The notes below the pieces were generated by a model, which was given only the letters and a program-made list of their open reading frames with translations, did not search any database and was not told where the DNA came from. From a phage: a DNA stretch of 64,000 bases. This document shows positions 9,033-53,641 of the stretch, piece after piece. The translations under genes were made by a program, and so were the position numbers. Each line of letters begins with the position of its first letter. Position 1 is the stretch's first letter. Where the stretch lies: sequence record PZ445432.1; one strand, given 5' to 3'.

Positions 9033-9225
9033 AAAGTTTCTCCTCTAGTCCCATAATACGATTTTCATAAGAAGCACGCAACTTTTCAATTGCCAGCGCA
9101 CGCACTGTAACCTCATTAGAATTAATAGCTAACTGGGCCAGATCTTCTGTTTCCATACGTCCGTTGTAAATTAAGCGATATTTAAGGTGTTTCACATTCT
9201 TGGTCATTATTAAACTCCACTGCAA
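9001..9225 (-). CDS. hypothetical protein
   Basis: ORF from track. Confidence 0.4.
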   Translation of the reverse strand: MQWSLIMTKNVKHLKYRLIYNGRMETEDLAQLAINSNEVTVRALAIEKLRASYENRIMGLEEKLYGLLESESKK

Positions 9226-9580
9226 CTGTTTCTAGGTCTTCGTCAAAAAAACTAGAGTATGTATCTTTAAGATACTGTTTAATACTCCAAGTAATATCTT
9301 CGTATCCATCTGGACTACGTTGGTATACTTTTAACACTCTATTATACACAAATTCAAGATTACATTTTACTTCATCTCTGTCTTCATCAAACAAGCAATA
9401 TGGGTTATATGGCGATACATCTAGATTTGTTTCCACCCAATCACCAATAACGGTGGGGTATCCAGCACCATCTATATGAGAGTAATCACCTGTGGCAGCA
9501 AAGACAGCCTCAGCAATATCATCCACGCCCAGATGGAAATCACCACATGTAGATTCAACTATATAGGGCTTTAATTCCAT
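9182..9580 (-). CDS. hypothetical acidic protein
   Basis: ORF from track; conserved promoter copy upstream at 9603-9648. Confidence 0.5.
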   Translation of the reverse strand: MELKPYIVESTCGDFHLGVDDIAEAVFAATGDYSHIDGAGYPTVIGDWVETNLDVSPYNPYCLFDEDRDEVKCNLEFVYNRVLKVYQRSPDGYEDITWSIKQYLKDTYSSFFDEDLETVAVEFNNDQECETP

Positions 9581-9602
9581 ATCTTTCTCCTCTCAAATTT
9601 AT

Positions 9603-9648
9603 AAATCTATTATACATAAATTTTTAGCTGAAAGCAAATAAAATAAAA
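9603..9648 (-). promoter_or_regulatory. conserved early sigma70 promoter
   Basis: minus strand: tatttgctttcagc ... tatgtataatagat. Confidence 0.5.
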
Positions 9649-9679
9649 GCCAGGTCGACTAGCAACCCGGCTGATTAGC

Positions 9680-11506
9680 TTACTTAAGATTTAAGTGTTT
9701 TACTCTACCAAGAACTTCTTTTTGTTTCCCAGAATTGAAAGGCCTACTGCTAGGGGATCCCAAGTACCCGCAAACCCTACGTGTAACCTCTATTTCTTCA
9801 GACCCACAACTCGGACATACAAACCCACGTTCAGAGGCAACAGATTCACCCATATACCCACAGTTGAAGCACTCATCAATTGGTATATTAACACCAATAT
9901 AATGGCTACATTCTAGCCCCTTATCCACCACATACTCAAGAGCTTTGTGGAACTTTTTCATTTGAGGTAGTTCCACAAATGATATATTACCACCATTAGC
10001 TATTTTGGTAAAATGAGCCTCGTACTCAAATTTAGTATCTGGGGCTACCTTCTCTCTTACGTCCAAATGGTGACTATTAGTGAGATAGCCTTTATCTGTT
10101 AGCCAAGAATACTCTGGGAATCTACGTTCTAGTAATTTATTAAAACGATTACATAGAGACTCACTAGGAGTAGCGTATAAGCTAAATCCAAGATTAGTCT
10201 CATTAGCTTTAACTTCGCAACGATTTTTTAGGTGAGTAAGAACTTCTTCTGTAAATTCAATACAATCCCTATGGGTTTGTGGTAGACCAAACATTATTTG
10301 GCACATCTCATAGACCCCAATGTATCCAAGAGATACAGAAGATCTACCCTCAAAAATAGGCCATACATACTCTTCCCCATCTAAACGCACACCAAAACCA
10401 CCGTGCATATAAAGAATAGGGGCTTGTTTAGCCTTAACTTTCTTCAGTCTGTTTAAGAAGAAGTCATGCGCTTCAAAAGCCTCATCCACATATTTGTCTA
10501 GAATATCCCAGAAATCTTCAAAAACCCCATCTGCCTCAGCAGCAACCATAGGTAGATTAATAGACACTACACCTAAATTATTGCGCCCTGCAATTTCTCC
10601 GGAGGGGATAGCAGATAAAAAGCTACGACAACCCATAGGTGCTTTAAAATCACCAGTAACAGCTACAACTTTCTCATAGCTTAAATAGTCCGGGTACATA
10701 CGGGTAGCAGAACACTCAAGTGCTAGCTGTTTTATATCGTAGTTAGGATCGCCTGGATTTTTATTTAACCCTTCTTTAACTGAGAATACTAGTTTAGGGA
10801 AGATAGGGGTTGACTCAGCAGCACCTAAACCTTTAATACGGTTTTGGAGGATGGCTTTCTGAATCATCCTTTCCTCCCACTCCTGTCCTAGCCCAAAGCC
10901 AAGCGTAACAAAAGGAGTCTGTCCATTAGAGTTAAATAATGAATTAGTTTCATACTCTAGGGCTTGGAATGCGTCATAACACTCTTTTTCAGTGAGTTCA
11001 GTAGCATATACAGCAGCTTTCCTTTCATCCTTGAGCCAACGTAGACCACGACCCAGGTGCTTATCATAAGACTTTCTGACATAAGGGGCTAAAACCTCAT
11101 CGATACGATCAATAGAAGTGCCACCATACTGAGCACCAGATACTTGGGCAATAATCTGAGCAGTGATTGCACATGCAGTAGTTATGGATTTAGGAGTTTC
11201 AATATTTGCATTACCAATTTTAGTACCATTCTTCAGCATGCCACCAAGGTCTACTAAACAACAGTTAGTGTATCCCTGTGCCCTGTAATCCATATCATGG
11301 ATGTGTATTTTACCTAGATTATGGGAGTCTAATAGATGTTTAGGTAATTCTTGTGCTACTAAATACTTGTTGATTTCTCCAGCTAATAAGTCTCTTTGGG
11401 TATGGAACATCTCACTAGGCTTATTAGCATTATTATGTTGTAAGTCCTTATCAGCAGTTAGAGTGAGCAGGCCTTTGCAATTCTCAATTAATTCATTCTC
11501 TGTCAT
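9680..11506 (-). CDS. nrdD: anaerobic ribonucleoside-triphosphate reductase
   Basis: C-terminal glycyl-radical motif RRVCGYLG and CxxC...CPSC zinc site; 608 aa. Confidence 0.9.
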   Translation of the reverse strand: MTENELIENCKGLLTLTADKDLQHNNANKPSEMFHTQRDLLAGEINKYLVAQELPKHLLDSHNLGKIHIHDMDYRAQGYTNCCLVDLGGMLKNGTKIGNANIETPKSITTACAITAQIIAQVSGAQYGGTSIDRIDEVLAPYVRKSYDKHLGRGLRWLKDERKAAVYATELTEKECYDAFQALEYETNSLFNSNGQTPFVTLGFGLGQEWEERMIQKAILQNRIKGLGAAESTPIFPKLVFSVKEGLNKNPGDPNYDIKQLALECSATRMYPDYLSYEKVVAVTGDFKAPMGCRSFLSAIPSGEIAGRNNLGVVSINLPMVAAEADGVFEDFWDILDKYVDEAFEAHDFFLNRLKKVKAKQAPILYMHGGFGVRLDGEEYVWPIFEGRSSVSLGYIGVYEMCQIMFGLPQTHRDCIEFTEEVLTHLKNRCEVKANETNLGFSLYATPSESLCNRFNKLLERRFPEYSWLTDKGYLTNSHHLDVREKVAPDTKFEYEAHFTKIANGGNISFVELPQMKKFHKALEYVVDKGLECSHYIGVNIPIDECFNCGYMGESVASERGFVCPSCGSEEIEVTRRVCGYLGSPSSRPFNSGKQKEVLGRVKHLNLK

Positions 11507-11696
11507 TGATTATTTCCTCAATAAACTTTATAGCTACTTTTGGTTCAATATTGAAGAATTCCGTAGCGCCGTCAAAATCTTTGTACTGGCAATTCTGCTC
11601 TTTAAAGTAGTTATGGGCTAATTTTTCTATTCGAACTGCACTACTATATTCTCCAATTTCAAATACTTTAATTTTTTCGGCATTACTCTTCTCCAC
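11493..11696 (-). CDS. hypothetical protein
   Basis: ORF from track, translationally coupled to nrdD; no radical-SAM Cys motif, so not NrdG. Confidence 0.45.
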   Translation of the reverse strand: MEKSNAEKIKVFEIGEYSSAVRIEKLAHNYFKEQNCQYKDFDGATEFFNIEPKVAIKFIEEIINDRE

Positions 11697-11869
11697 AGAA
11701 TTTTCACACCTATTATACTAAACATTATCCACTATGTCAATTAAAATTTTCTTTCGCCACCTAATACTGTAATATTCCGCGTATAAATAAATGATTATCT
11801 AATACCATACATTTCCCGTTAAAAGCAAGCAAATTTTTTATTTAAATGCAATATCATAGGCTTATTTAA

Positions 11870-45844: not shown

Positions 45845-46157
45845 ATCTGGTCTAATAGACGGTGAAGATATTGTTAATTCCATGTTAGAAGTAACAGTAG
45901 ATAATATTAATCCTATTTTGGAGGGAGAAACCTCAGATCTTATAGGACTCTCTAGCACATTTGATTCTTTGGCTAAATTAGCTTTAGACGATGAAGAGAT
46001 AACCAAAGAAGATCTCGCTACAGCTATGAATATGGCTATTAATGCTTACATCGGTAAACGTACTGATGAACTTGGTAAACAGATCAAAAAGCGTGATGCT
46101 ACGCTAGGTCTTATGGAAACGGCCACTATGTTACGAAGTGGTAAACAACTTCATTAA
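45786..46157 (+). CDS. hypothetical acidic protein
   Basis: internal ATG chosen; overlaps upstream ORF end. Confidence 0.5.
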   Translation: MTEKKNPLLEQMKEWESNIESGLIDGEDIVNSMLEVTVDNINPILEGETSDLIGLSSTFDSLAKLALDDEEITKEDLATAMNMAINAYIGKRTDELGKQIKKRDATLGLMETATMLRSGKQLH

Positions 46158-46164
46158 TTTTAGG

Positions 46165-46200
46165 GGGCCAGGGCTTAACTGTTCTGGCCTTTTATGTTTT
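46165..46200 (+). terminator. rho-independent terminator
   Basis: ggccagggcttaactgttctggcc followed by ttttatgtttt. Confidence 0.65.
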
Positions 46201-46213
46201 CAAGGAAATTCAA

Positions 46214-46417
46214 ATGCAAGTATATGTCCTTACTAGAGATATAAATGAGTATAATCAGGATGGTGAGTATTTTGTAAAAGTATTCGCTGAAAAGCCAAGT
46301 AAACAACAATTATTAGATGTTGGAGTACCGGAAGACCAGGCTAAGTGTTTATTACAGGATAAAGAGTTTACTGGAGATGCTTACGAATGTTTCCACCTTA
46401 GCTGTGAGACTATTTAG
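46214..46417 (+). CDS. hypothetical protein
   Basis: ORF from track. Confidence 0.45.
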   Translation: MQVYVLTRDINEYNQDGEYFVKVFAEKPSKQQLLDVGVPEDQAKCLLQDKEFTGDAYECFHLSCETI

Positions 46418-46418
46418 T

Positions 46419-46865
46419 ATGAGAGAAAAAGTAAATGAATTATTAATCGAGGAAGCTAACAACTTTCCAATAAATAGGTTCGTCAAATCAGATGGGTCTA
46501 TTAATAGAACTAAGATTAAGCAGCTACACCCCGACTTCCAGCAAGAAGCGCTAAACCTTATCTTTATCAAGAAAGCCATTGCAGCTCACGGGGCTTTCTT
46601 TGGGTATGAGCGTGTAAATTATAAAACAATGCAGCAGCAAGTCGAGATCTATTGTCCAGACCATGATGGTTATTACTGGCAAACTGCTAGATCTCATTTA
46701 GAAGGGCATGGATGTCGACTGTGCGCACACAAGGTTGTGCAGCGTGTCACGGATTATGGAACTTATACCGTACCAGCATGTTACCATAAATTTGTAATTG
46801 ACGATAATCACATAGTTTGGTATAATAAGTTTTCAAAGTTAAGAATGGAGATAAGTAGTGAGTAG
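46419..46865 (+). CDS. hypothetical Cys/His-rich protein (possible nuclease-associated domain)
   Basis: CPDHDGYYW...HLEGHGCRLC cluster; start at ATG overlapping upstream stop. Confidence 0.45.
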   Translation: MREKVNELLIEEANNFPINRFVKSDGSINRTKIKQLHPDFQQEALNLIFIKKAIAAHGAFFGYERVNYKTMQQQVEIYCPDHDGYYWQTARSHLEGHGCRLCAHKVVQRVTDYGTYTVPACYHKFVIDDNHIVWYNKFSKLRMEISSE

Positions 46866-47148
46866 CTATATTGTATGGTCAAACCCACTAGCAGCACTTA
46901 GTAACAAACTATTTAAAACAACGTGGGGGTATAATGAAATAGACTTAGGTAGTCACCCAATACCAAACAAACATCCCTTAGTTCCAGAGCTGTATAGGGT
47001 AGTGATAAATGGCGCGGAGTATTTGGTTGATAAATTTGACAGAAAACGTTTACTAGAGGGTATCTACGATAATTCTACATCAATAAATGAATTAGTAGAA
47101 CATGCCCAAATATATGATAAAAGCTGGATGTTAATATGGAGATCATAG
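46858..47148 (+). CDS. hypothetical protein
   Basis: ORF from track. Confidence 0.45.
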   Translation: MSSYIVWSNPLAALSNKLFKTTWGYNEIDLGSHPIPNKHPLVPELYRVVINGAEYLVDKFDRKRLLEGIYDNSTSINELVEHAQIYDKSWMLIWRS

Positions 47149-47360
47149 TAATTATTTTAGCAGTTATGTTGTTTATTGTAACATTTGTATCATTTGCTAT
47201 TATGCGCAGAGCTAGAGAACTAGCGGAAGATATAACAAAATTACGTGGTGAGTTGGCTGCCCTTAAACTACAGCGCGAGGCTTTAAAGTTATTTGTGGTT
47301 CAAGTAGCGTGGAGCATACAACAGAAGACTTCATCACGTATCTCAAACATTACATGGTAA
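47136..47360 (+). CDS. small membrane protein
   Basis: N-terminal TM helix. Confidence 0.4.
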   Translation: MEIIVIILAVMLFIVTFVSFAIMRRARELAEDITKLRGELAALKLQREALKLFVVQVAWSIQQKTSSRISNITW

Positions 47361-47367
47361 TTAAATA

Positions 47368-47553
47368 ATGGAAACTCTTTTTCTTTTAATGCTTGTAGGT
47401 TCCCTGCTAGTCATATTAGCACTTCTACTAATCTGCAATATTCTTAATAATAAGAATTTAGAGTTAAAGTGTGAGAACCAAATCCTTAATCGTGAACTTA
47501 AACAATATAATCTAGCAGCTCATAAACTGCTAGACAAACTGGAGAATAAATAA
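47368..47553 (+). CDS. small membrane protein
   Basis: N-terminal TM helix. Confidence 0.4.
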   Translation: METLFLLMLVGSLLVILALLLICNILNNKNLELKCENQILNRELKQYNLAAHKLLDKLENK

Positions 47554-48161
47554 TGTTTACACAACAACCTATTCAAGTAGTACCAGATCATGAACTGAAT
47601 ACATGGGATTATAGCTTTAAAGATTTAACTGCTACTGTACAATTCAAATCTATGAAGCTAACCTTTGCACACACTAATATTAAAGCATGTAAAGATTTTG
47701 AAGGTAGGCTCAACAACGCTCGTAAGATTTTTGGTACGGCTCGGATTCCAGCTGATAACCTTATTAACGCATTAATAGATGCGGGCTATAAACTCGTGAA
47801 GGCTGAGGTGAACCGCCCTAGTACTCCAGTAACTGTTAGTGATCCGTGGCAGTCAGGGCCAATTATAAGGTGGAACAGTCCTAAAATAACGTCGGATTTG
47901 CACAATGTTCCATGCGGTGGTGCGCTGTCGTCTAATCAGTCCTATCGAGTTGGGGAAGATTATGGGCCTTCTGCACAGTTGAAACATACTCAAGAAGCTT
48001 TTGAATCTGACATGAAAAGCGTAGCACCTGCAGATGCTGGAGTTTCTAGGAGTTCTGTTTGTACTATTCATTTTAATAATCCTAGTAAACATGGAAGTCT
48101 AGAAGATGCTATTATGGGGGCGTTGGGAGCTGCTCTTAATGAAGATAAGAGAGGTAATTAA
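47553..48161 (+). CDS. hypothetical protein
   Basis: ORF from track. Confidence 0.5.
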   Translation: MFTQQPIQVVPDHELNTWDYSFKDLTATVQFKSMKLTFAHTNIKACKDFEGRLNNARKIFGTARIPADNLINALIDAGYKLVKAEVNRPSTPVTVSDPWQSGPIIRWNSPKITSDLHNVPCGGALSSNQSYRVGEDYGPSAQLKHTQEAFESDMKSVAPADAGVSRSSVCTIHFNNPSKHGSLEDAIMGALGAALNEDKRGN

Positions 48162-48886
48162 TGAGTATTAAAAAGAATTTAGCAGAGATTATTAAATTAG
48201 CTAGAGCTTGTAATGGAAAATGTGTTTCTCAACTTAATGAACTAGAGGCACATGCAGTAGCGTTTTGTGCAGAGTTTTATCCTGCATATATTAACGCTAG
48301 TGGACAGCCGAAATATAATAAAGATGCAGAAGAAGTTACGTTAGCTCCTTCGTATATTAGTATACGTCGTCTGATTCAAACTGTTGACCCTAATATTAAA
48401 GGATTTTCAGCAGATTCATTCCATGTTTTTGCGGATAAAGAACTCCCACATTTTAAAGAAGGAAGTGCAAAGACAGCCCTAGAATGTTATCCTAATATTT
48501 TGATGATTCCACCTAAGCAATGTAAGTATGATCATCTTCCTAGACTTACAAAGAAAGTAGAACCACCTTATTCTTCTCTATCTGAATTAAAGCTAGGAAT
48601 TGTATCTACACTTGCGCAGGTTCATCTAAGTATAGTTGACGACTCAACAACATCTAATCCAGTCTTAGATGCTGCACATTATGAAATTTTACGTGACCCT
48701 GAACAGGCTAGAAAAGTTGCGAAGTCTGTTAAGTTTGACATCTCAACAATTCTTGATACGATGCAAGATACGAGACCTAGAGGAAGTGTAGATTATTCTG
48801 CGCTAAATTCCGAGTCATCTTACCTAGCAACATTCCTTTTCATGGCATCGAAGGGAATCATACTCAAAGTCAATCACGATGTATAA
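48161..48886 (+). CDS. hypothetical protein
   Basis: ORF from track. Confidence 0.5.
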   Translation: MSIKKNLAEIIKLARACNGKCVSQLNELEAHAVAFCAEFYPAYINASGQPKYNKDAEEVTLAPSYISIRRLIQTVDPNIKGFSADSFHVFADKELPHFKEGSAKTALECYPNILMIPPKQCKYDHLPRLTKKVEPPYSSLSELKLGIVSTLAQVHLSIVDDSTTSNPVLDAAHYEILRDPEQARKVAKSVKFDISTILDTMQDTRPRGSVDYSALNSESSYLATFLFMASKGIILKVNHDV

Positions 48887-48902
48887 ACGTTAACAAAATC
48901 TT

Positions 48903-48931
48903 CTTGACATTATTTGAGCTGTATGTTATAA
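48903..48931 (+). promoter_or_regulatory. perfect-consensus sigma70 promoter (TTGACA, 17 bp, TATAAT)
   Basis: ttgacattatttgagctgtatgttataat; no ORF for ~1.7 kb downstream. Confidence 0.6.
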
Positions 48932-49225
48932 TAATCTCATAGATTAAAAACATCAACTTGTTTTTACCTCTAGGCCGTAGATTTACATCATTCCTCGTAG
49001 GAAAACACTTGATGACGGTTCTGTTCGCAGGTTCTCGTCAATTGTTCTTCCTCCCCGAGACTCAGGAGGATGTATCAAATCGCACGCGCCTAGAGGGGCT
49101 AACTCTCATGAAATGGGGGTATATTAACTTTTAAATAACTGATAAATATTTAAAGGCAATATCTGTGTTCAAGATGATACACCTGTTGCCGCTCATCTGC
49201 TAGGATGGCACAACACTTTCTTCTA

Positions 49226-50065
49226 GACTCCTAAGTTTCTAGGAAATTGATAAGCACAAATTCTAGAGATCGCACAAAAATATTCATCGGATTTGCACAT
49301 ATTCTAGGAAATTGATAAGTACAAAAATATTCATCGGATTTGCACATATTCTAGGGCAGTTTCTCTCAAACGTTACACATACTAGGCGGTTAATATAGGG
49401 CGGTTATAGGGAGGGCGGTTATTTCTAGGAGACATTTTTTGAAAACACATTTCTGGATTTTACTGTCGGATTTGCACACTGCATTTCTAGAAATTTATGG
49501 TCGGATTTGCACAAACGCCTAAGTTTTTAGGAACATATAATCTCTTGAAAATGGCAGCATTATTTCGGGCCGAAGGCCCATGATTGCCTGAGTTTTTAGA
49601 GCCACAGGAATTTTCACTTGTCAAGCTATTTTGCCCCATTTTGCTAATAAAATTTTACTTTTTCTGCACCTATCTCAAATTTCCCCAAATTATCTCAACT
49701 CTTCCCCAAAACCCCGCAAATCAGGTGCTCCGCACCAATCCTGCGCCCACACCATTCTAGCCTCCCAAATTTCTCTCGCTCTCTCATCTTCTCCTCAAAC
49801 CTATACAATCACACACCCTCTCATCGAAGTCACAAAAATTTCATCGGATTCGCACAAATAAACCCATGTCGGATTTGCACATATTCTAGCTAATTCCACA
49901 GGATTGATGCGCAGCATCGGATTGCTGGAGTTTTTGGGAAAATTCGTCGTCGGATTCGCACATCACAAAAGTTTTTAGGGTCGGATTTGCACACTACCAA
50001 AAATTGTCGGATTCGCACATACACGCCCGCACGTAACACCCGTGGAGCAATGTCGGATTTGCACA
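49226..50065 (+). repeat. array of ~12 direct copies of core tcggat(t/c)(t/c)gcaca, some inside longer ~50-bp repeat units
   Basis: repeated atcggatttgcacatattctag, gtcggatttgcacactgc, gtcggattcgcacat and similar, all on one strand. Confidence 0.7.
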
Positions 50066-50071
50066 AAAGCG

Positions 50072-50089
50072 CAGGGCAATTGCCCTGCG
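50072..50089. repeat. 18-bp perfect palindrome gcagggcaattgccctgc
   Basis: read directly. Confidence 0.7.
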
Positions 50090-50094
50090 ACTTT

Positions 50095-50335
50095 GAATGA
50101 GAATCATTATCATTTAAGAAGTGGAATGCAAATGATAATTATTCTCATTTAAGAAGTGGAATGATTCTCATTTAATAAGTGGAATGCAAATGATAATTAT
50201 TCTCATTTAAGAAGTGGAATGAGAACTATTCAAGAAGTGAAACGATTCTCATTAAAGAAGCGAAACGATTCTCATCCTAGAAAGGGAATGCAAATGATAA
50301 TGATTCTCATTTAAAAACGGAAGTGAGAAACACTG
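50095..50335 (+). repeat. tandem degenerate repeats of (g)attctcatttaagaagtggaatg
   Basis: about 8 copies with variants aagaagtgaaacg / aagaagcgaaacg / aaaaacggaagtg. Confidence 0.7.
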
Positions 50336-50344
50336 TTATTTAAG

Positions 50345-50452
50345 TTATCCACAGACTTATTAACAGCACGATTTGACTTGACAGAATCCTAGCCATTTTG
50401 AGGCGTTATCCACAGACTTATCCACAGCTTATTCTACTGTATAAATATACAG
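50345..50452. repeat. left inverted module with three DnaA-box 9-mers (TTATCCACA) and 16-bp palindrome ctgtataaatatacag
   Basis: ttatccaca at ~50345, ~50406 and ~50418; palindrome at 50437-50452. Confidence 0.7.
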
Positions 50453-50648
50453 TATTCCTACGCAGTGAATAATTCTAATATAGGCCTAAAACGTCCTGAA
50501 TCGCATTCTAGCGCGTTTTATTTTGGCGGGGATACTAAAACAAGGGCAAAACTGGAGGAGGCTTAGAAATTAGTTAGCTCGCTAACGATCACACAAGGCG
50601 ACACGTAACACCCTAATCATTAGCAGGCTAACCATCGCGGGCGCGGTC

Positions 50649-50669
50649 AAATGAGAATCATTCTCATTT
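50649..50669. repeat. 21-bp palindrome aaatgagaatcattctcattt
   Basis: read directly; related to the gattctcattt repeat unit. Confidence 0.6.
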
Positions 50670-50709
50670 GAGGATTGGGGGCACTTCCTGATAATTGCCC
50701 CCGTGATTA

Positions 50710-50904
50710 TTAGTCCGGTAATTGATGCGTGATCTTCTCCTCTTCCCCGTAGGAATCGACTAAATGCTGATAATAACCATCATGATCATAAATGACTTTA
50801 TCATATTCGCCCAGCTCGACCGCTTGCCGGTTTTCCGGAGTATCGGGCACATAAAAAACGTCAACCATTGTGGTAGTTTTGGTCACAATAATTTTATCGC
50901 TCAT
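50710..50904 (-). CDS. hypothetical protein
   Basis: ORF from track. Confidence 0.45.
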   Translation of the reverse strand: MSDKIIVTKTTTMVDVFYVPDTPENRQAVELGEYDKVIYDHDGYYQHLVDSYGEEEKITHQLPD

Positions 50905-50919
50905 AATAACGCCCCGTTA

Positions 50920-51114
50920 TTAGTTGACTATCTCAAAGATAGCGTTCTCAAGTGTCGCCCTTAGGATCCCATCGCGCCCTACTACGGAATACTTGAGATC
51001 AGGTATTTTGTAACGCTCAATTGCTTTGAGTAATTGATCTTTTTGGGCTTTATATTTTTGCCCTTCTCGCGCTATCGTGTCGCCTTCGGCTTTAATGCAA
51101 ATCAGTGTAACCAT
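50920..51114 (-). CDS. hypothetical protein
   Basis: internal ATG preceded by AGGGGG RBS; track ORF extends to 51201. Confidence 0.45.
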   Translation of the reverse strand: MVTLICIKAEGDTIAREGQKYKAQKDQLLKAIERYKIPDLKYSVVGRDGILRATLENAIFEIVN

Positions 51115-51396
51115 AATAATCCCCCTAGTAAATATATTTTTGCCAATAGCGGCGAACGTTATCGCCACCAGCGGAATCATTAGCTGCCTTACTATTACCA
51201 ACGAAAATATATAATCTCATTAGTATTATTTTCCCCGCATTAATTTATACATAACTAACATCCCGCAAAACTGACCTAAGATAGTGCAGACAACAAGGGA
51301 TAACACAATATTGCCTATGGTGTTATAAGTAACCACACCAACAATAAGGGATAATGCATACCCTAGCAGGGCAATATAAACAGCCATATTATTTAC

Positions 51397-51732
51397 CTAT
51401 TTTCGAAACGCTGTTTCAATACTATCAGCCGTGGATTGAATATACGCGCCTTTCATTATCAGGCGCTCGGTGCATACTTTGCGAAAAATATTAATAAAAT
51501 CATCTTCATTTTCTGCGATTAACGCCTCCCCCATGACCTGAATATCACACGATGCAAAGGTCAAAAATTGAAACGCTAGTTCACGGGCGACGACCGCATT
51601 AATTTTATAATGCGCCTTTCCATCGTAAATATTAACAACGCCCTTATATTCAGGCGAAAGCTGATTTAAGTAGTTTGCTAATAATCCCGGGCGGCAATTA
51701 GTAACAAAGCGATTCCCTTCATAAATTACCAT
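51397..51732 (-). CDS. hypothetical protein
   Basis: ATG preceded by GGGAGG RBS. Confidence 0.5.
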   Translation of the reverse strand: MVIYEGNRFVTNCRPGLLANYLNQLSPEYKGVVNIYDGKAHYKINAVVARELAFQFLTFASCDIQVMGEALIAENEDDFINIFRKVCTERLIMKGAYIQSTADSIETAFRK

Positions 51733-51855
51733 TTTATAACCTCCCAATCAGATAGCCAGATAAAAGCATAAAAATCCCCAGCGAACTAGGGTCATTCTTA
51801 AACAAGGTGGCGGTAAAACCGCCAACCATTGCAAGGATAACAACAATAACGCTTT

Positions 51856-52068
51856 TCATAGTACCCCACGAAACGCAGCGTAAAAGGTGGCAAAGTGTCT
51901 AACCGTTTCAGCTATCACGTTGCCGCGCTTATCGAATTTTTTCTCGGTAACACGAAAGGCGTTTTTATTCCGTGCTACATATTCGATTTTACAATCTTCC
52001 CGCTCGAACGTGTTAACGTCCACCAGCTTAAAGCCTTTGGAACGAGCAAGGGAAACATTACGAATCAT
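51856..52068 (-). CDS. hypothetical protein
   Basis: ORF from track. Confidence 0.45.
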   Translation of the reverse strand: MIRNVSLARSKGFKLVDVNTFEREDCKIEYVARNKNAFRVTEKKFDKRGNVIAETVRHFATFYAAFRGVL

Positions 52069-52070
52069 TT

Positions 52071-52259
52071 TTATTCTCCTTTACTATTCATGCAGCCCAG
52101 CAGATAAGAAAATACAGCGACACCCGCGCCAATAATAACCATAGGTTTAGTATTTGCTAAACTGCAATAAGAATCCTGAATACCATAAGCGGTGGCGAAA
52201 AGAGTCAAAATAGCGCCCAAGATACCTGCTAAAAAAGCCCGAAAAATAACCATTTTCAT
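52071..52259 (-). CDS. small membrane protein
   Basis: two hydrophobic helices. Confidence 0.4.
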   Translation of the reverse strand: MKMVIFRAFLAGILGAILTLFATAYGIQDSYCSLANTKPMVIIGAGVAVFSYLLGCMNSKGE

Positions 52260-52299
52260 TCTCCTAGTTAGTGGGGCGAAAGTAGCGCCCCGTTATTAC

Positions 52300-52530
52300 T
52301 TACATTAAAACGATTTTGGCGGCTTGTTTTTTGGTGCAATGTTCTGCTTTCAGGGTATCCAGCAAAAAGCCCGCCGTTTGCTGATCGATTTGATCATTAT
52401 CATAAAGCGCCTGAATGGTAGTGTAAGTTTTAGCAATGCCGTATTCTTGCACCATTTCTTGAATGATCCAGCGATTTGATACCCAGCCTTTTCCAGTGAA
52501 AAGATGACTAGCAGAAGAATAAGCAACCAT
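52300..52530 (-). CDS. hypothetical protein
   Basis: ORF from track. Confidence 0.45.
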   Translation of the reverse strand: MVAYSSASHLFTGKGWVSNRWIIQEMVQEYGIAKTYTTIQALYDNDQIDQQTAGFLLDTLKAEHCTKKQAAKIVLM

Positions 52531-52648
52531 TATAAGCCTCCAAAATTTTTTGGGAAATTTTCAACCGTCCTCAAACGGTGTAAGGGCATTATAACAAAAA
52601 GGCCGCCATAATCGGCGACCTTTACAAAACTTTACATTAGATTATTTA

Positions 52649-53641
52649 TTACTCGTTTTCGGTGTTAGTGGTAAAAGTAGAAATATCGATACCTTTTACC
52701 ATTTCATCAATCATCTCAGCGATGTTAAAACTTTGCACCATTTCCAACATTGCCGCTTCCATAGCCGCTCCTGCTACCGCTTTCGCTTTCTGGTTATTCG
52801 GGGCGTACTGGTCAACCGCTACACTCAGCAGGTTAGCGATCACTACTCGACCGATCGGCGTATCAATATAGCCTTTAATCATAAATGGCGCTTTTTTAGC
52901 CGCTACTTTCGTGATTTGAGTTAGTGCAATTTTACCCGCTTCCAGTTTTGCAGCATTTACAACAGCGGATTTATTAGCGGCAACGATGTTAGCGATCTTA
53001 GTCATGGTATTTTTTCCTTTGTTTTCAGTGGTTTGAGTGTTAACGCTTTGAGTGTTAGAATTTACAGCATGTTTTTCTATATTGTCAATAGGCTGATCTT
53101 CATCTTTCCAGAAAGAAAAGCCCGCGCTTTCTATATCCCCATCGTATACGTATGGGTATACTTCCGACGGTAGCAAAAAATTGCCATCATCATCAAAGGC
53201 CATTACAGCCGCCAGACGATACCCGTCACCGATTGACCGATTCCAGCCAACTGATAAATAACGCCAAAATGAATCAAGAAAGTTTTCAACGTCATAAAGA
53301 TCCTTATCATAAGGCTCATAATTTTCTATTGAAAAAACTTCTAAGCCCGCCCCAGCATCATAGGCTTTTACTGTGCTACCTTTTACGATTATGAAATCAG
53401 TGTCCGGCCCCCTACTAGTAAGCAGGTGATTATCCCTATTATATAAGATAATAGTTGCCCCTTGCTTATATAATGGTAGAAAACTACTCATATCATAGGC
53501 GTCGAAATCATCAAAAAAATTCTGGTGAATATCTTCGGCCTTGTTAACAAAGTGCTTAATGCTGGTTGTTCTGCTACCGTCCAGCAGGTTGCGCAGCGCA
53601 CCTTTTAAGACGGTTGCGTTATCTGGTTTATATAGCCTCAT
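52649..53641 (-). CDS. hypothetical protein (330 aa)
   Basis: ORF from track; largest gene in the inverted-repeat-bracketed block. Confidence 0.55.
   Translation of the reverse strand: MRLYKPDNATVLKGALRNLLDGSRTTSIKHFVNKAEDIHQNFFDDFDAYDMSSFLPLYKQGATIILYNRDNHLLTSRGPDTDFIIVKGSTVKAYDAGAGLEVFSIENYEPYDKDLYDVENFLDSFWRYLSVGWNRSIGDGYRLAAVMAFDDDGNFLLPSEVYPYVYDGDIESAGFSFWKDEDQPIDNIEKHAVNSNTQSVNTQTTENKGKNTMTKIANIVAANKSAVVNAAKLEAGKIALTQITKVAAKKAPFMIKGYIDTPIGRVVIANLLSVAVDQYAPNNQKAKAVAGAAMEAAMLEMVQSFNIAEMIDEMVKGIDISTFTTNTENE

Follow-up and report, generated by a model that had tools for sequence, protein, structure and literature searches.

The pRNA of phage phi29 is a structured non-coding RNA of about 120-174 nt that is transcribed from a strong host-polymerase promoter by the genome end, and its fold is kept where little sequence is shared. 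In phage lambda, the strong promoter pR' gives the 6S RNA, a terminated and untranslated transcript of about 190 nt, with antitermination allowing transcription into the late genes. In T7, the promoter phiOR lies about 550 bp before the right terminal repeat, and transcription into the junction has been linked to concatemer processing. T5 is likewise a classical model phage, with promoters that are textbook tools and with 40 years of work spent on dissecting its terminal-repeat and injection-stop region. Here we describe a locus next to that region in a T5-like phage, in a stretch of 64,000 nt (sequence record PZ445432.1; the window), where a consensus host promoter is followed by what is probably a stand-alone gene for a small structured RNA. 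The 64-kb window is 100% identical to Escherichia phage HildyBeyeler (Bas33, MZ501074.1; Tequintavirus, T5-like); a position in the MZ501074.1 record minus 48089 gives the window position, and the plus strand of the window is the minus strand of the standard T5 map.

Like phi29 pRNA, the RNA of the T5-like phages is predicted to be phage-encoded, non-coding and structured, with a fold kept over divergent sequence. It differs in being a single long rod, whereas pRNA is built as a three-way junction with interlocking loops, and a search of 46000-53000 on both strands with Rfam 15 (including 6S RNA, phi29 pRNA, riboswitches and ribozymes) gave no match at E ≤ 1. We know of no need for an RNA in the packaging of T5-like phages, and a packaging role for this one, drawn from the analogy with pRNA, is pure speculation. 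The likeness to lambda pR' lies in a strong promoter followed by what would be a short, terminated, untranslated RNA of about 190 nt; unlike in lambda, no plus-strand genes follow here, and it is the RNA structure that is conserved, not a protein binding site. As with T7 phiOR, the promoter stands outside a direct terminal repeat and points inward, in this case from about 700 bp, but T7 uses its own polymerase and has no conserved structured RNA, whereas in the T5-like phages transcription would mostly stop before the repeat. The RNA gene shares with the T5 injection-stop signal and Repeat Region 3 the large non-coding region at the border between first-step-transfer and second-step-transfer DNA (Heusterspreute 1987; Davison 2020), and differs from them in lying in an unanalysed gap before ORF018.

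In the reading that we consider probable, host sigma-70 RNA polymerase would initiate at A48939, and the transcript would fold into a short hairpin (48945-48966), a long rod (48967-49096) and a hairpin containing five G residues (the G5 hairpin, 49102-49120) with a U/A-rich tail. Most transcription would end at the G5 hairpin and its tail, and read-through would probably be removed by the termination factor Rho in a C-rich tract beyond 49600. The unit directly past the promoter is modelled at about 185-195 nt, roughly 48939-49130. The features concerned are as follows.

48888-48903, plus strand: A-rich, UP-like stretch GTTAACAAAATCTTC, upstream of the -35 hexamer.
48904-48909, plus strand: -35 hexamer TTGACA, by sequence match.
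48910-48926, plus strand: 17-nt spacer ending in TGT (48924-48926; extended -10 TG at 48924-48925).
48927-48932, plus strand: -10 hexamer TATAAT, by sequence match.
48933-48945, no strand assigned: perfect 13-bp palindrome of 5-3-5 layout, AATCT-CAT-AGATT, straddling the predicted start from about -6 to +7.
48945-48966, plus strand: hairpin P2, UAAAAACA / UGUUUUUA, in both the minimum-free-energy and centroid folds.
48967-49096, plus strand: imperfect rod (long hairpin) of 130 nt with closing helix CCUCUAGGC / GCCUAGAGG, predicted fold.
49102-49120, plus strand: 3' hairpin ACUCUCAU-GAA-AUGGGGGU with the G5 run at 49115-49119, predicted fold.
49121-49165, plus strand: U/A-rich tail and AT-rich stretch, more than 80% A+T, AT-rich in every type with differing sequence.
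49600-49850, plus strand: terminal-repeat boundary, at about 49600 by homology to the end of the T5 left terminal repeat (LTR) at 10139, then a C-rich, G-poor tract.

The promoter matches the sigma-70 consensus at 12 of 12 hexamer positions, with a 17-nt spacer and, in addition, a TGn extended -10. An earlier note on this DNA had placed a perfect-consensus promoter at 48903-48931; the motif is present, but its true span is 48904-48932, one base to the right. The evidence of selection on the promoter comes from 49 homologous loci of T5, Tequintavirus, Epseptimavirus, and Klebsiella and Enterobacter phages. They were gathered from metagenomes, IMG/VR and the phages in GenBank, with the 70-bp block 49166-49235 serving as anchor; a search with the upstream protein gave only four close relatives. 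The promoter and the palindromic box at the start site are found in 48 of the 49, and the remaining locus, Enterobacter phage KKP_3711, has its own extended -10 version, TGT-TATAAT. Among 22 distinct promoter versions, the spacers fall into nine unrelated sequence families and are 17 or 18 nt long. The -35 hexamer is TTGACA in 17 of these versions, TTGACG in three, and TTGCAT and TTGGAG in one each; the -10 hexamer is TATAAT throughout, except in the T5 type (TATCAT), and the TGT is kept in all 22. Hexamers have thus been kept while spacers diverged, which bears out the claim of a perfect-consensus promoter and shows that it is genuine and under selection; judged by its sequence it is a near-maximal host sigma-70 promoter, from which initiation is predicted. 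The A-rich stretch upstream is kept as (G/A)TTAAC(A/G)AAA(T/A)(C/A)TTC in most versions, even where a different gene lies upstream, and may act as an UP element. The start is probably A48939, the seventh base after the -10 hexamer, given the usual distance of 7 nt. The layout of the T5 promoter PN25 agrees with this spacing.

Strong consensus promoters are over-represented in this genome, where TTGACA-N17-TATAAT with at most one mismatch occurs at six sites against 0.8 expected (0.82 ± 0.91 from shuffles, of which 0 of 100 reach six). The exact motif occurs at two sites only in the 64-kb window, this one and 11712-11740 on the minus strand. That second perfect-consensus promoter is followed by a Shine-Dalgarno sequence and an ATG, which marks it as an ordinary mRNA promoter and rules it out as the source of a similar RNA. 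Another site, at 46798-46826 on the plus strand, matches 11 of 12 positions and carries the TG.

Downstream of the promoter, the predicted fold is more stable than expected from composition and favours the plus strand. Against dinucleotide shuffles, the unit in the window folds at -66.5 kcal/mol with a z-score of -5.4 on the plus strand, and at -56.7 kcal/mol with a z-score of -3.2 on the minus strand; its helices contain G-U pairs that would be A-C mismatches on the minus strand. Two inverted copies of TTCTAG(G/A), at 48969 and 49089, make up the base of the rod. The roughly 200 nt past the -10 hexamer are too divergent to align between lineages, and at least nine unrelated rod versions are found. 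These are version A (Hildy, Spc35, SP01), B (S126, falkor), C (L008, S124, DT571/2 and others), D (L009), E (MM-2), F (T5) and G (L026), with further versions in UTK0009, counted by sequence alone and outside the folded set, and in Klebsiella phage Roth37. The versions that were folded share one plan, namely a short hairpin, a rod of 100-135 nt with a strong closing helix, a hairpin with a G-run, and an A/U-rich stretch. P2 itself is replaced in other types by CAACUA/UAGUUG, CAAUAA/UUAUUG, UUAAU/AUUAA or UACAUA/UAUGUA. The z-scores are -5.4 for the A type of the window, -6.1/-6.6 for T5, -5.6/-6.3 for C, -5.5 for D, -5.0 for E, -3.5 for B, -5.9 for G, -4.8 for L030, -2.7 for Klebsiella phage Roth37 and -8.3 for Enterobacter phage KKP_3711. 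The last departs from the shared plan, with two strong hairpins and no G5 run.

These strand differences bear on whether the rod works as DNA instead, as a cruciform or single-strand hairpin in replication or terminal-repeat processing, with the promoter incidental or an aid to extrusion. The rod lies near the repeat boundary, an inverted repeat able to form a hairpin is used by T7 close to the junction of its concatemers, and G-T wobble is tolerated in DNA hairpins. However, a cruciform would not require the clear preference for the plus strand, and the structure has a conserved promoter on one side and a hairpin resembling a terminator on the other, so a purely DNA role is highly improbable.

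The conservation pattern points to an RNA whose structure matters. A global MAFFT alignment of all types was structurally meaningless in the rod and out of register in P2, and covariation was therefore counted within alignable groups only. Between the C and E types, RNAalifold gave 52 pairs, 10 of them changed on both sides, with 99.6% of cells paired. When the 3' partners were slid by 1-3 columns as a control, at most two such pairs remained and the covariation was at most 0.036 against the observed 0.204, a value reached by none of 500 shuffles. P2 has two compensatory pairs between the C and E types, and the T5 type has three compensatory pairs. In the A type, 11 unpaired columns vary against one position, still pairing, among 66 pairs, and 1-nt indels fall in the apical loop of the rod. 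The closing helix CCUCUAGGC/GCCUAGAGG becomes GCUCUAGGC/GCCUAGAGC in L026 and GCUAGGCA/UGCCUAGC in Roth37. Across 20 distinct sequences, conservation is lowest in the RNA body (48948-49097), with 0.39-0.62 identity to the window against 0.85-0.99 in its surroundings. To judge from these comparisons, such drifting sequence with a persisting fold bears the mark of a structural RNA.

With a covariance model made from the C and E types, a search of the 64-kb window gives exactly one match, which spans 48933-49135 (63.9 bits, E about 1e-12), so that the RNA gene is present in a single copy. The same model recovers the A, B, D and G types, and has no match in T5, Roth37 or KKP_3711. The putative homology of these three draws on where the unit lies, its promoter, the end motifs that they share and the mosaic L026, whose 5' part is A-E-like and whose 3' part is T5-like. 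In many relatives a gene for an HNH homing endonuclease lies between the bas33_0167 homologue and the promoter (L018-L020, L022 and L023, locus positions 153-509, equivalent to about 48886 in the window). Recombination driven by homing may in part be behind the mosaic exchange of RNA types.

As for what the RNA does, its rod sequence has been swapped freely while the pairing was kept and the apical loop was not, which makes it most likely that it acts by shape and not by antisense pairing. Comparison by BLAST with 5,426 complete E. coli genomes gave no match, so the RNA does not mimic a host RNA by sequence. It would most likely be a shape-dependent protein-binding RNA or a double-stranded-type structural RNA, such as a decoy, a scaffold or a processing substrate. 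The fast change of the rod under a kept fold suggests a protein partner that reads shape only, or an arms race with host defences.

The earlier note had also claimed that no plausible open reading frame (ORF) follows the promoter for about 1.7 kb, and this holds. Plus-strand ORFs of at least 30 aa in 48932-50700 are just 31-76 aa long, mostly with TTG or GTG starts, and none is annotated in the GenBank record, where the sole coding sequence (CDS) is bas33_0168 on the minus strand. ARAGORN found no tRNA or tmRNA gene in 48800-50800. A small protein or leader peptide could still be the product of the promoter. One candidate is a 58-aa ORF at 48958-49134 in the window, of which a 47-aa homologue is annotated with a ribosome-binding site in Salmonella phage Seafire; the other is the 8-aa MKWGYINF, for which ATGAAATGGGGG is conserved in many types, with GAGG or AGGAG 8-11 nt upstream in several. 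Neither behaves as a gene. In Spc35 and L036, 1-nt indels in the loop put the longer ORF out of frame, in L027 a stop interrupts it, and other RNA types have unrelated ORFs or none. The ATG of the shorter one is lost from L026 and UTK0009, and in L020 and L027 an extra G shifts its frame. With frameshifts, stops and lost ATGs in close relatives, no small ORF downstream proved to be conserved, and a peptide product is scarcely credible.

The small hypothetical CDSs annotated here differ between records and overlap the repeats or the RNA gene, and are probably spurious calls, which in several GenBank records should give way to a non-coding RNA feature. They are listed here.

49487-49639, minus strand: bas33_0168.
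Seafire record: HOU65_gp018-020.
MM-2 record: CDS0030-0036.

A literature search with the exact sequence found no earlier mention of the promoter or the RNA. Neither is mentioned in Davison 2020, Klimuk 2020, or the BF23, 2026 T5 pre-early and DRT4 papers, an older description being possible. Of the T5 records, AY587007 and AY543070 carry promoter features, none of them at this site, and AY692264 is featureless in the interval. The RNA thus appears to be a new family among phage-encoded small non-coding RNAs, with no prior description found.

How far transcription runs past the RNA gene can be judged from published RNA-seq of Bas33 at 20 min, in which bas33_0166 stands at about 1735 transcripts per million (TPM), bas33_0167 at about 1160 and bas33_0168 at about 75, in a gene-based, unstranded table of a single time point (PNAS 2026; PMC13250531). 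The last of these genes, at 49487-49639, lies 350-500 nt past the predicted end of the RNA, and its signal is about 16-fold below that of the upstream genes. This indicates that little transcription from the operon or the promoter reaches the repeat arrays, and since the counts are unstranded, the plus-strand share is lower still. In the earlier note, the promoter was said to fire into the repeat region, possibly driving a non-coding RNA across the repeat arrays. The geometry is as described, with arrays from about 49222 to about 50670, but a transcript running over them finds no support either in the low signal at bas33_0168 or in the end of the structured part at about 49120-49135, some 90 nt before the first repeat motif. 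The interpretation in the note is right in part, in that a non-coding RNA is probable, though a compact and structured one ending short of the repeats.

That a long non-coding transcript nevertheless covers the repeat arrays and the injection-stop region, or that the site is chiefly a sink that binds polymerase, is very unlikely. Consensus promoters with an extended -10 do bind polymerase very tightly, the 3' hairpin of the window is not a canonical terminator, and there is no plus-strand gene for 1.7 kb. However, the RNA-seq signal 350-700 nt downstream is about 16-fold below that of the upstream genes, and neither a long transcript nor a sink explains the conserved folding of the first 190 nt. 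Beyond 49600, moreover, the plus strand is C-rich and G-poor for 250 nt, with a GC skew of -0.53 to -0.72. Tracts of this kind are typical of Rho loading sites, and would favour termination of a long transcript. The skewed tract of 250 nt (49600-49850) begins exactly at the inferred repeat boundary and is possibly a Rho loading site for plus-strand read-through, or a G-rich element on the other strand.

The same fall in signal could mean that the structured region is mainly the 3' end of the upstream early operon, as a terminator, a 3' stabiliser or an RNase III-type processing hairpin, which would also insulate the convergent early and pre-early operons, the promoter merely adding an RNA derived from the 3' untranslated region. 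The final gene of that plus-strand operon is bas33_0167 (48161-48886), and the promoter begins about 17-18 nt past its stop. These 17 nt contain no terminator, so operon transcripts must run into the structure; the RNA-seq signal falls about 16-fold across the region, which lies between convergent operons, and in the early RNA of T7, long imperfect hairpins typically serve as RNase III sites. This explanation is nonetheless decidedly unlikely. In Klebsiella phage Roth37, a canonical terminator (968-992) closes the upstream gene, and after it come a promoter with a 12/12 match and TG (1021-1050), the same start-site box, a new rod and a T5-like G5 motif. The upstream operon there terminates before the promoter, which shows that the RNA unit stands alone. 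Furthermore, the unit stays in place where the upstream gene is replaced by different ORFs or an HNH homing endonuclease has been inserted before the promoter, and a terminator needs no perfect, conserved promoter ahead of it.

The 3' end of the RNA is predicted from the G5 hairpin and what follows; accumulation of a discrete product is likewise a prediction. In the window, the stem has eight pairs (three G-C, three G-U and two A-U) and is followed by the tail UAUAUUAACUUUU; because G-U pairs are used, the hairpin is strand-specific. The last four G residues of the run are invariant across 28 aligned sequences, and five or more are present in all but L030. In D-type relatives, the element is a textbook intrinsic terminator, with a 10-pair stem GAGACUCUCAU..UGGGGGUCUC followed by UUUUUCUUU. 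The end of the RNA is probable within the first 10-15 nt of the tail at 49121-49165.

Several observations weigh against a stand-alone RNA gene with the ends proposed here. The search for a downstream terminator suggested in the earlier note did find a hairpin and a U/A-rich tail, but the version in the window fails a simple scan for intrinsic terminators, its T-run being too interrupted. The RNA and both its ends are predictions, and the gene-based, unstranded RNA-seq table skips 48939-49135; the drop that it records could equally be the termination of the upstream operon. The compensatory changes are mostly a few lineage-level replacements, so that independent events are few. A further point is the start-site palindrome. 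All non-T5 types and Klebsiella phage Roth37 carry it unchanged, and its T5 counterpart, AACTC-TAT-GAGTT, has different letters and is still a perfect 5-3-5 palindrome. With a start at 48939, its 5' arm lies outside the primary transcript, and it cannot form a whole RNA hairpin. A search through the window for the palindrome as a possible operator gave occurrences not above chance. An operator, a processing signal and 5'-3' pairing were weighed, and none is established. Boxes resembling the palindrome recur at the 3' end of the RNA gene, as TCTCA(C)ATGAAAT in the window and CTCTATATGAG in T5. Finally, the strict linkage of the unit to the repeat boundary, the G5 run and the AT-rich stretch fit a cis-acting role equally well.

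The genomic position of the RNA gene is relevant to this last point. The promoter lies at the left edge of a 1.8-kb non-coding region, which is closed by minus-strand pre-early genes from 50710; the homologous T5 region is annotated as untranslated. By homology to AY587007, the promoter is at about 10.77-10.80 kb in T5 coordinates, pointing leftward into the left terminal repeat, and the RNA gene is at about 10.56-10.77 kb, between the landmarks of the LTR end (10139) and ORF018 (10856-11740). The RNA gene is thus unique second-step-transfer DNA to the right of the T5 LTR end; some 470 nt separate it from the terminal repeat, and it lies about 1.1 kb past the 7.9% nick or first-step-transfer stop and palindrome J (about 50070-50089 in the window). 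Relatives have their repeat boundaries annotated at positions between about 49400 and about 49980, all of them downstream of the RNA gene. The promoter and the RNA are outside the annotated T5 injection-stop signal (iss, 9140-10149), which together with Repeat Region 3 (9194-10409) ends about 150-400 nt short of the RNA gene. This location would make the promoter the first on second-step-transfer DNA to enter the cell after injection resumes.

Such a position raises the possibility that the RNA is a cis-acting primer or forms an R-loop, in which its 3' end stays hybridised or is processed and primes DNA synthesis in the plus direction into the terminal repeat. Its purpose would be the duplication of the terminal repeat in concatemers or a replication origin; in a variant, transcription activates terminase cutting. 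This is compatible with a real RNA gene and differs on what the RNA is for. The unit always lies just outside the terminal repeat and points inward, whatever gene is upstream. No feature of it varies less than the G-run, after which 45-50 nt of more than 80% A+T always follow. The surroundings resemble those of an origin or packaging site, with TCGGATTTGCACA repeats, DnaA boxes, GGGCGGTTAT repeats and, at the boundary, a segment whose conservation extends to Klebsiella phages. In geometry, the locus resembles T7 phiOR, ColE1 RNA II, the R-loop origins of T4 and the mitochondrial LSP-CSBII primer. With ColE1 RNA II, T4 ori(uvsY) and ori(34) and LSP-CSBII, it shares a strong promoter, a structured untranslated RNA, a G-run and an AT-rich stretch, and DnaA boxes and repeats lie nearby. 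Unlike in those systems, no antisense regulator was found for the T5-like RNA, and the origins of T5 were mapped elsewhere, near the genome centre, by early electron microscopy. The G5 run is missing from KKP_3711, the clean intrinsic terminator of the D type would release the RNA, and hybrid formation and priming are argued from suggestive sequence features. We regard such a primer as rather unlikely, and also hold it unlikely that the RNA is either a cis-acting primer or R-loop or, alternatively, a packaging cofactor like phi29 pRNA. If it did act as a primer, this would supply a long-missing mechanism by which the 10-kb terminal repeat is duplicated in concatemers and the start of packaging is marked.

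Under the preferred reading of a stand-alone RNA gene, this new RNA family sits in the interval that separates the analysed repeat region from the first early gene, with conservation reaching from phages of E. coli to those of Klebsiella. It would offer an easily mutated handle on the aftermath of second-step transfer, the 10-kb repeat duplication and the start of packaging.

Other non-coding elements lie immediately downstream of the RNA gene.

49166-49235, no strand assigned: 70-bp block TGTGTTCAAGATGATACACCTGTTGCCGCTCATCTGCTAGGATGGCACAACACTTTCTTCTAGACTCCT, about 98% identical among the Tequintavirus and Epseptimavirus loci compared.
49222-49491, plus strand: seven direct TTCTAG(G/A) motifs, the first repeat arrays past the RNA gene.
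49383-49426: three (A)GGCGGTTA(T/A) repeats with 99% conservation, which Enterobacter phage KKP_3711 has as well.

The 70-bp block is absent from Klebsiella phage Roth37, and no conserved ORF or hairpin explains its conservation; it is probably a protein-binding DNA site. CTAG is enriched about 2.5-fold in the 48-50 kb bins compared with elsewhere in the window. Several GenBank records of relatives (falkor, ESCO40) begin or end near 49383-49426, which hints at a physical end or an assembly breakpoint. The segment 49593-49670, which spans the inferred repeat boundary, is the sole part of the region recognisable by BLAST in 79 Klebsiella T5-like phages, at about 80% identity, and may be where terminase cuts or recognises the DNA; just outside this segment there is a strong GC hairpin, GGGCCGAAGGCCC (49567-49579). 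Reckoned by its coordinates, the window would overrun the end of the 111,607-bp GenBank record by 482 nt, which implies that it was taken from the genome in some other form, permuted or otherwise, in which the terminal repeat is collapsed to one copy. Phages differ in how many copies of the TCGGATTTGCACA repeat they have, and at 49274-49355 the window carries a 47-nt unit (ACAAAAATATTCATCGGATTTGCACATATTCTAGG, duplicated) that is extra by comparison with most relatives.

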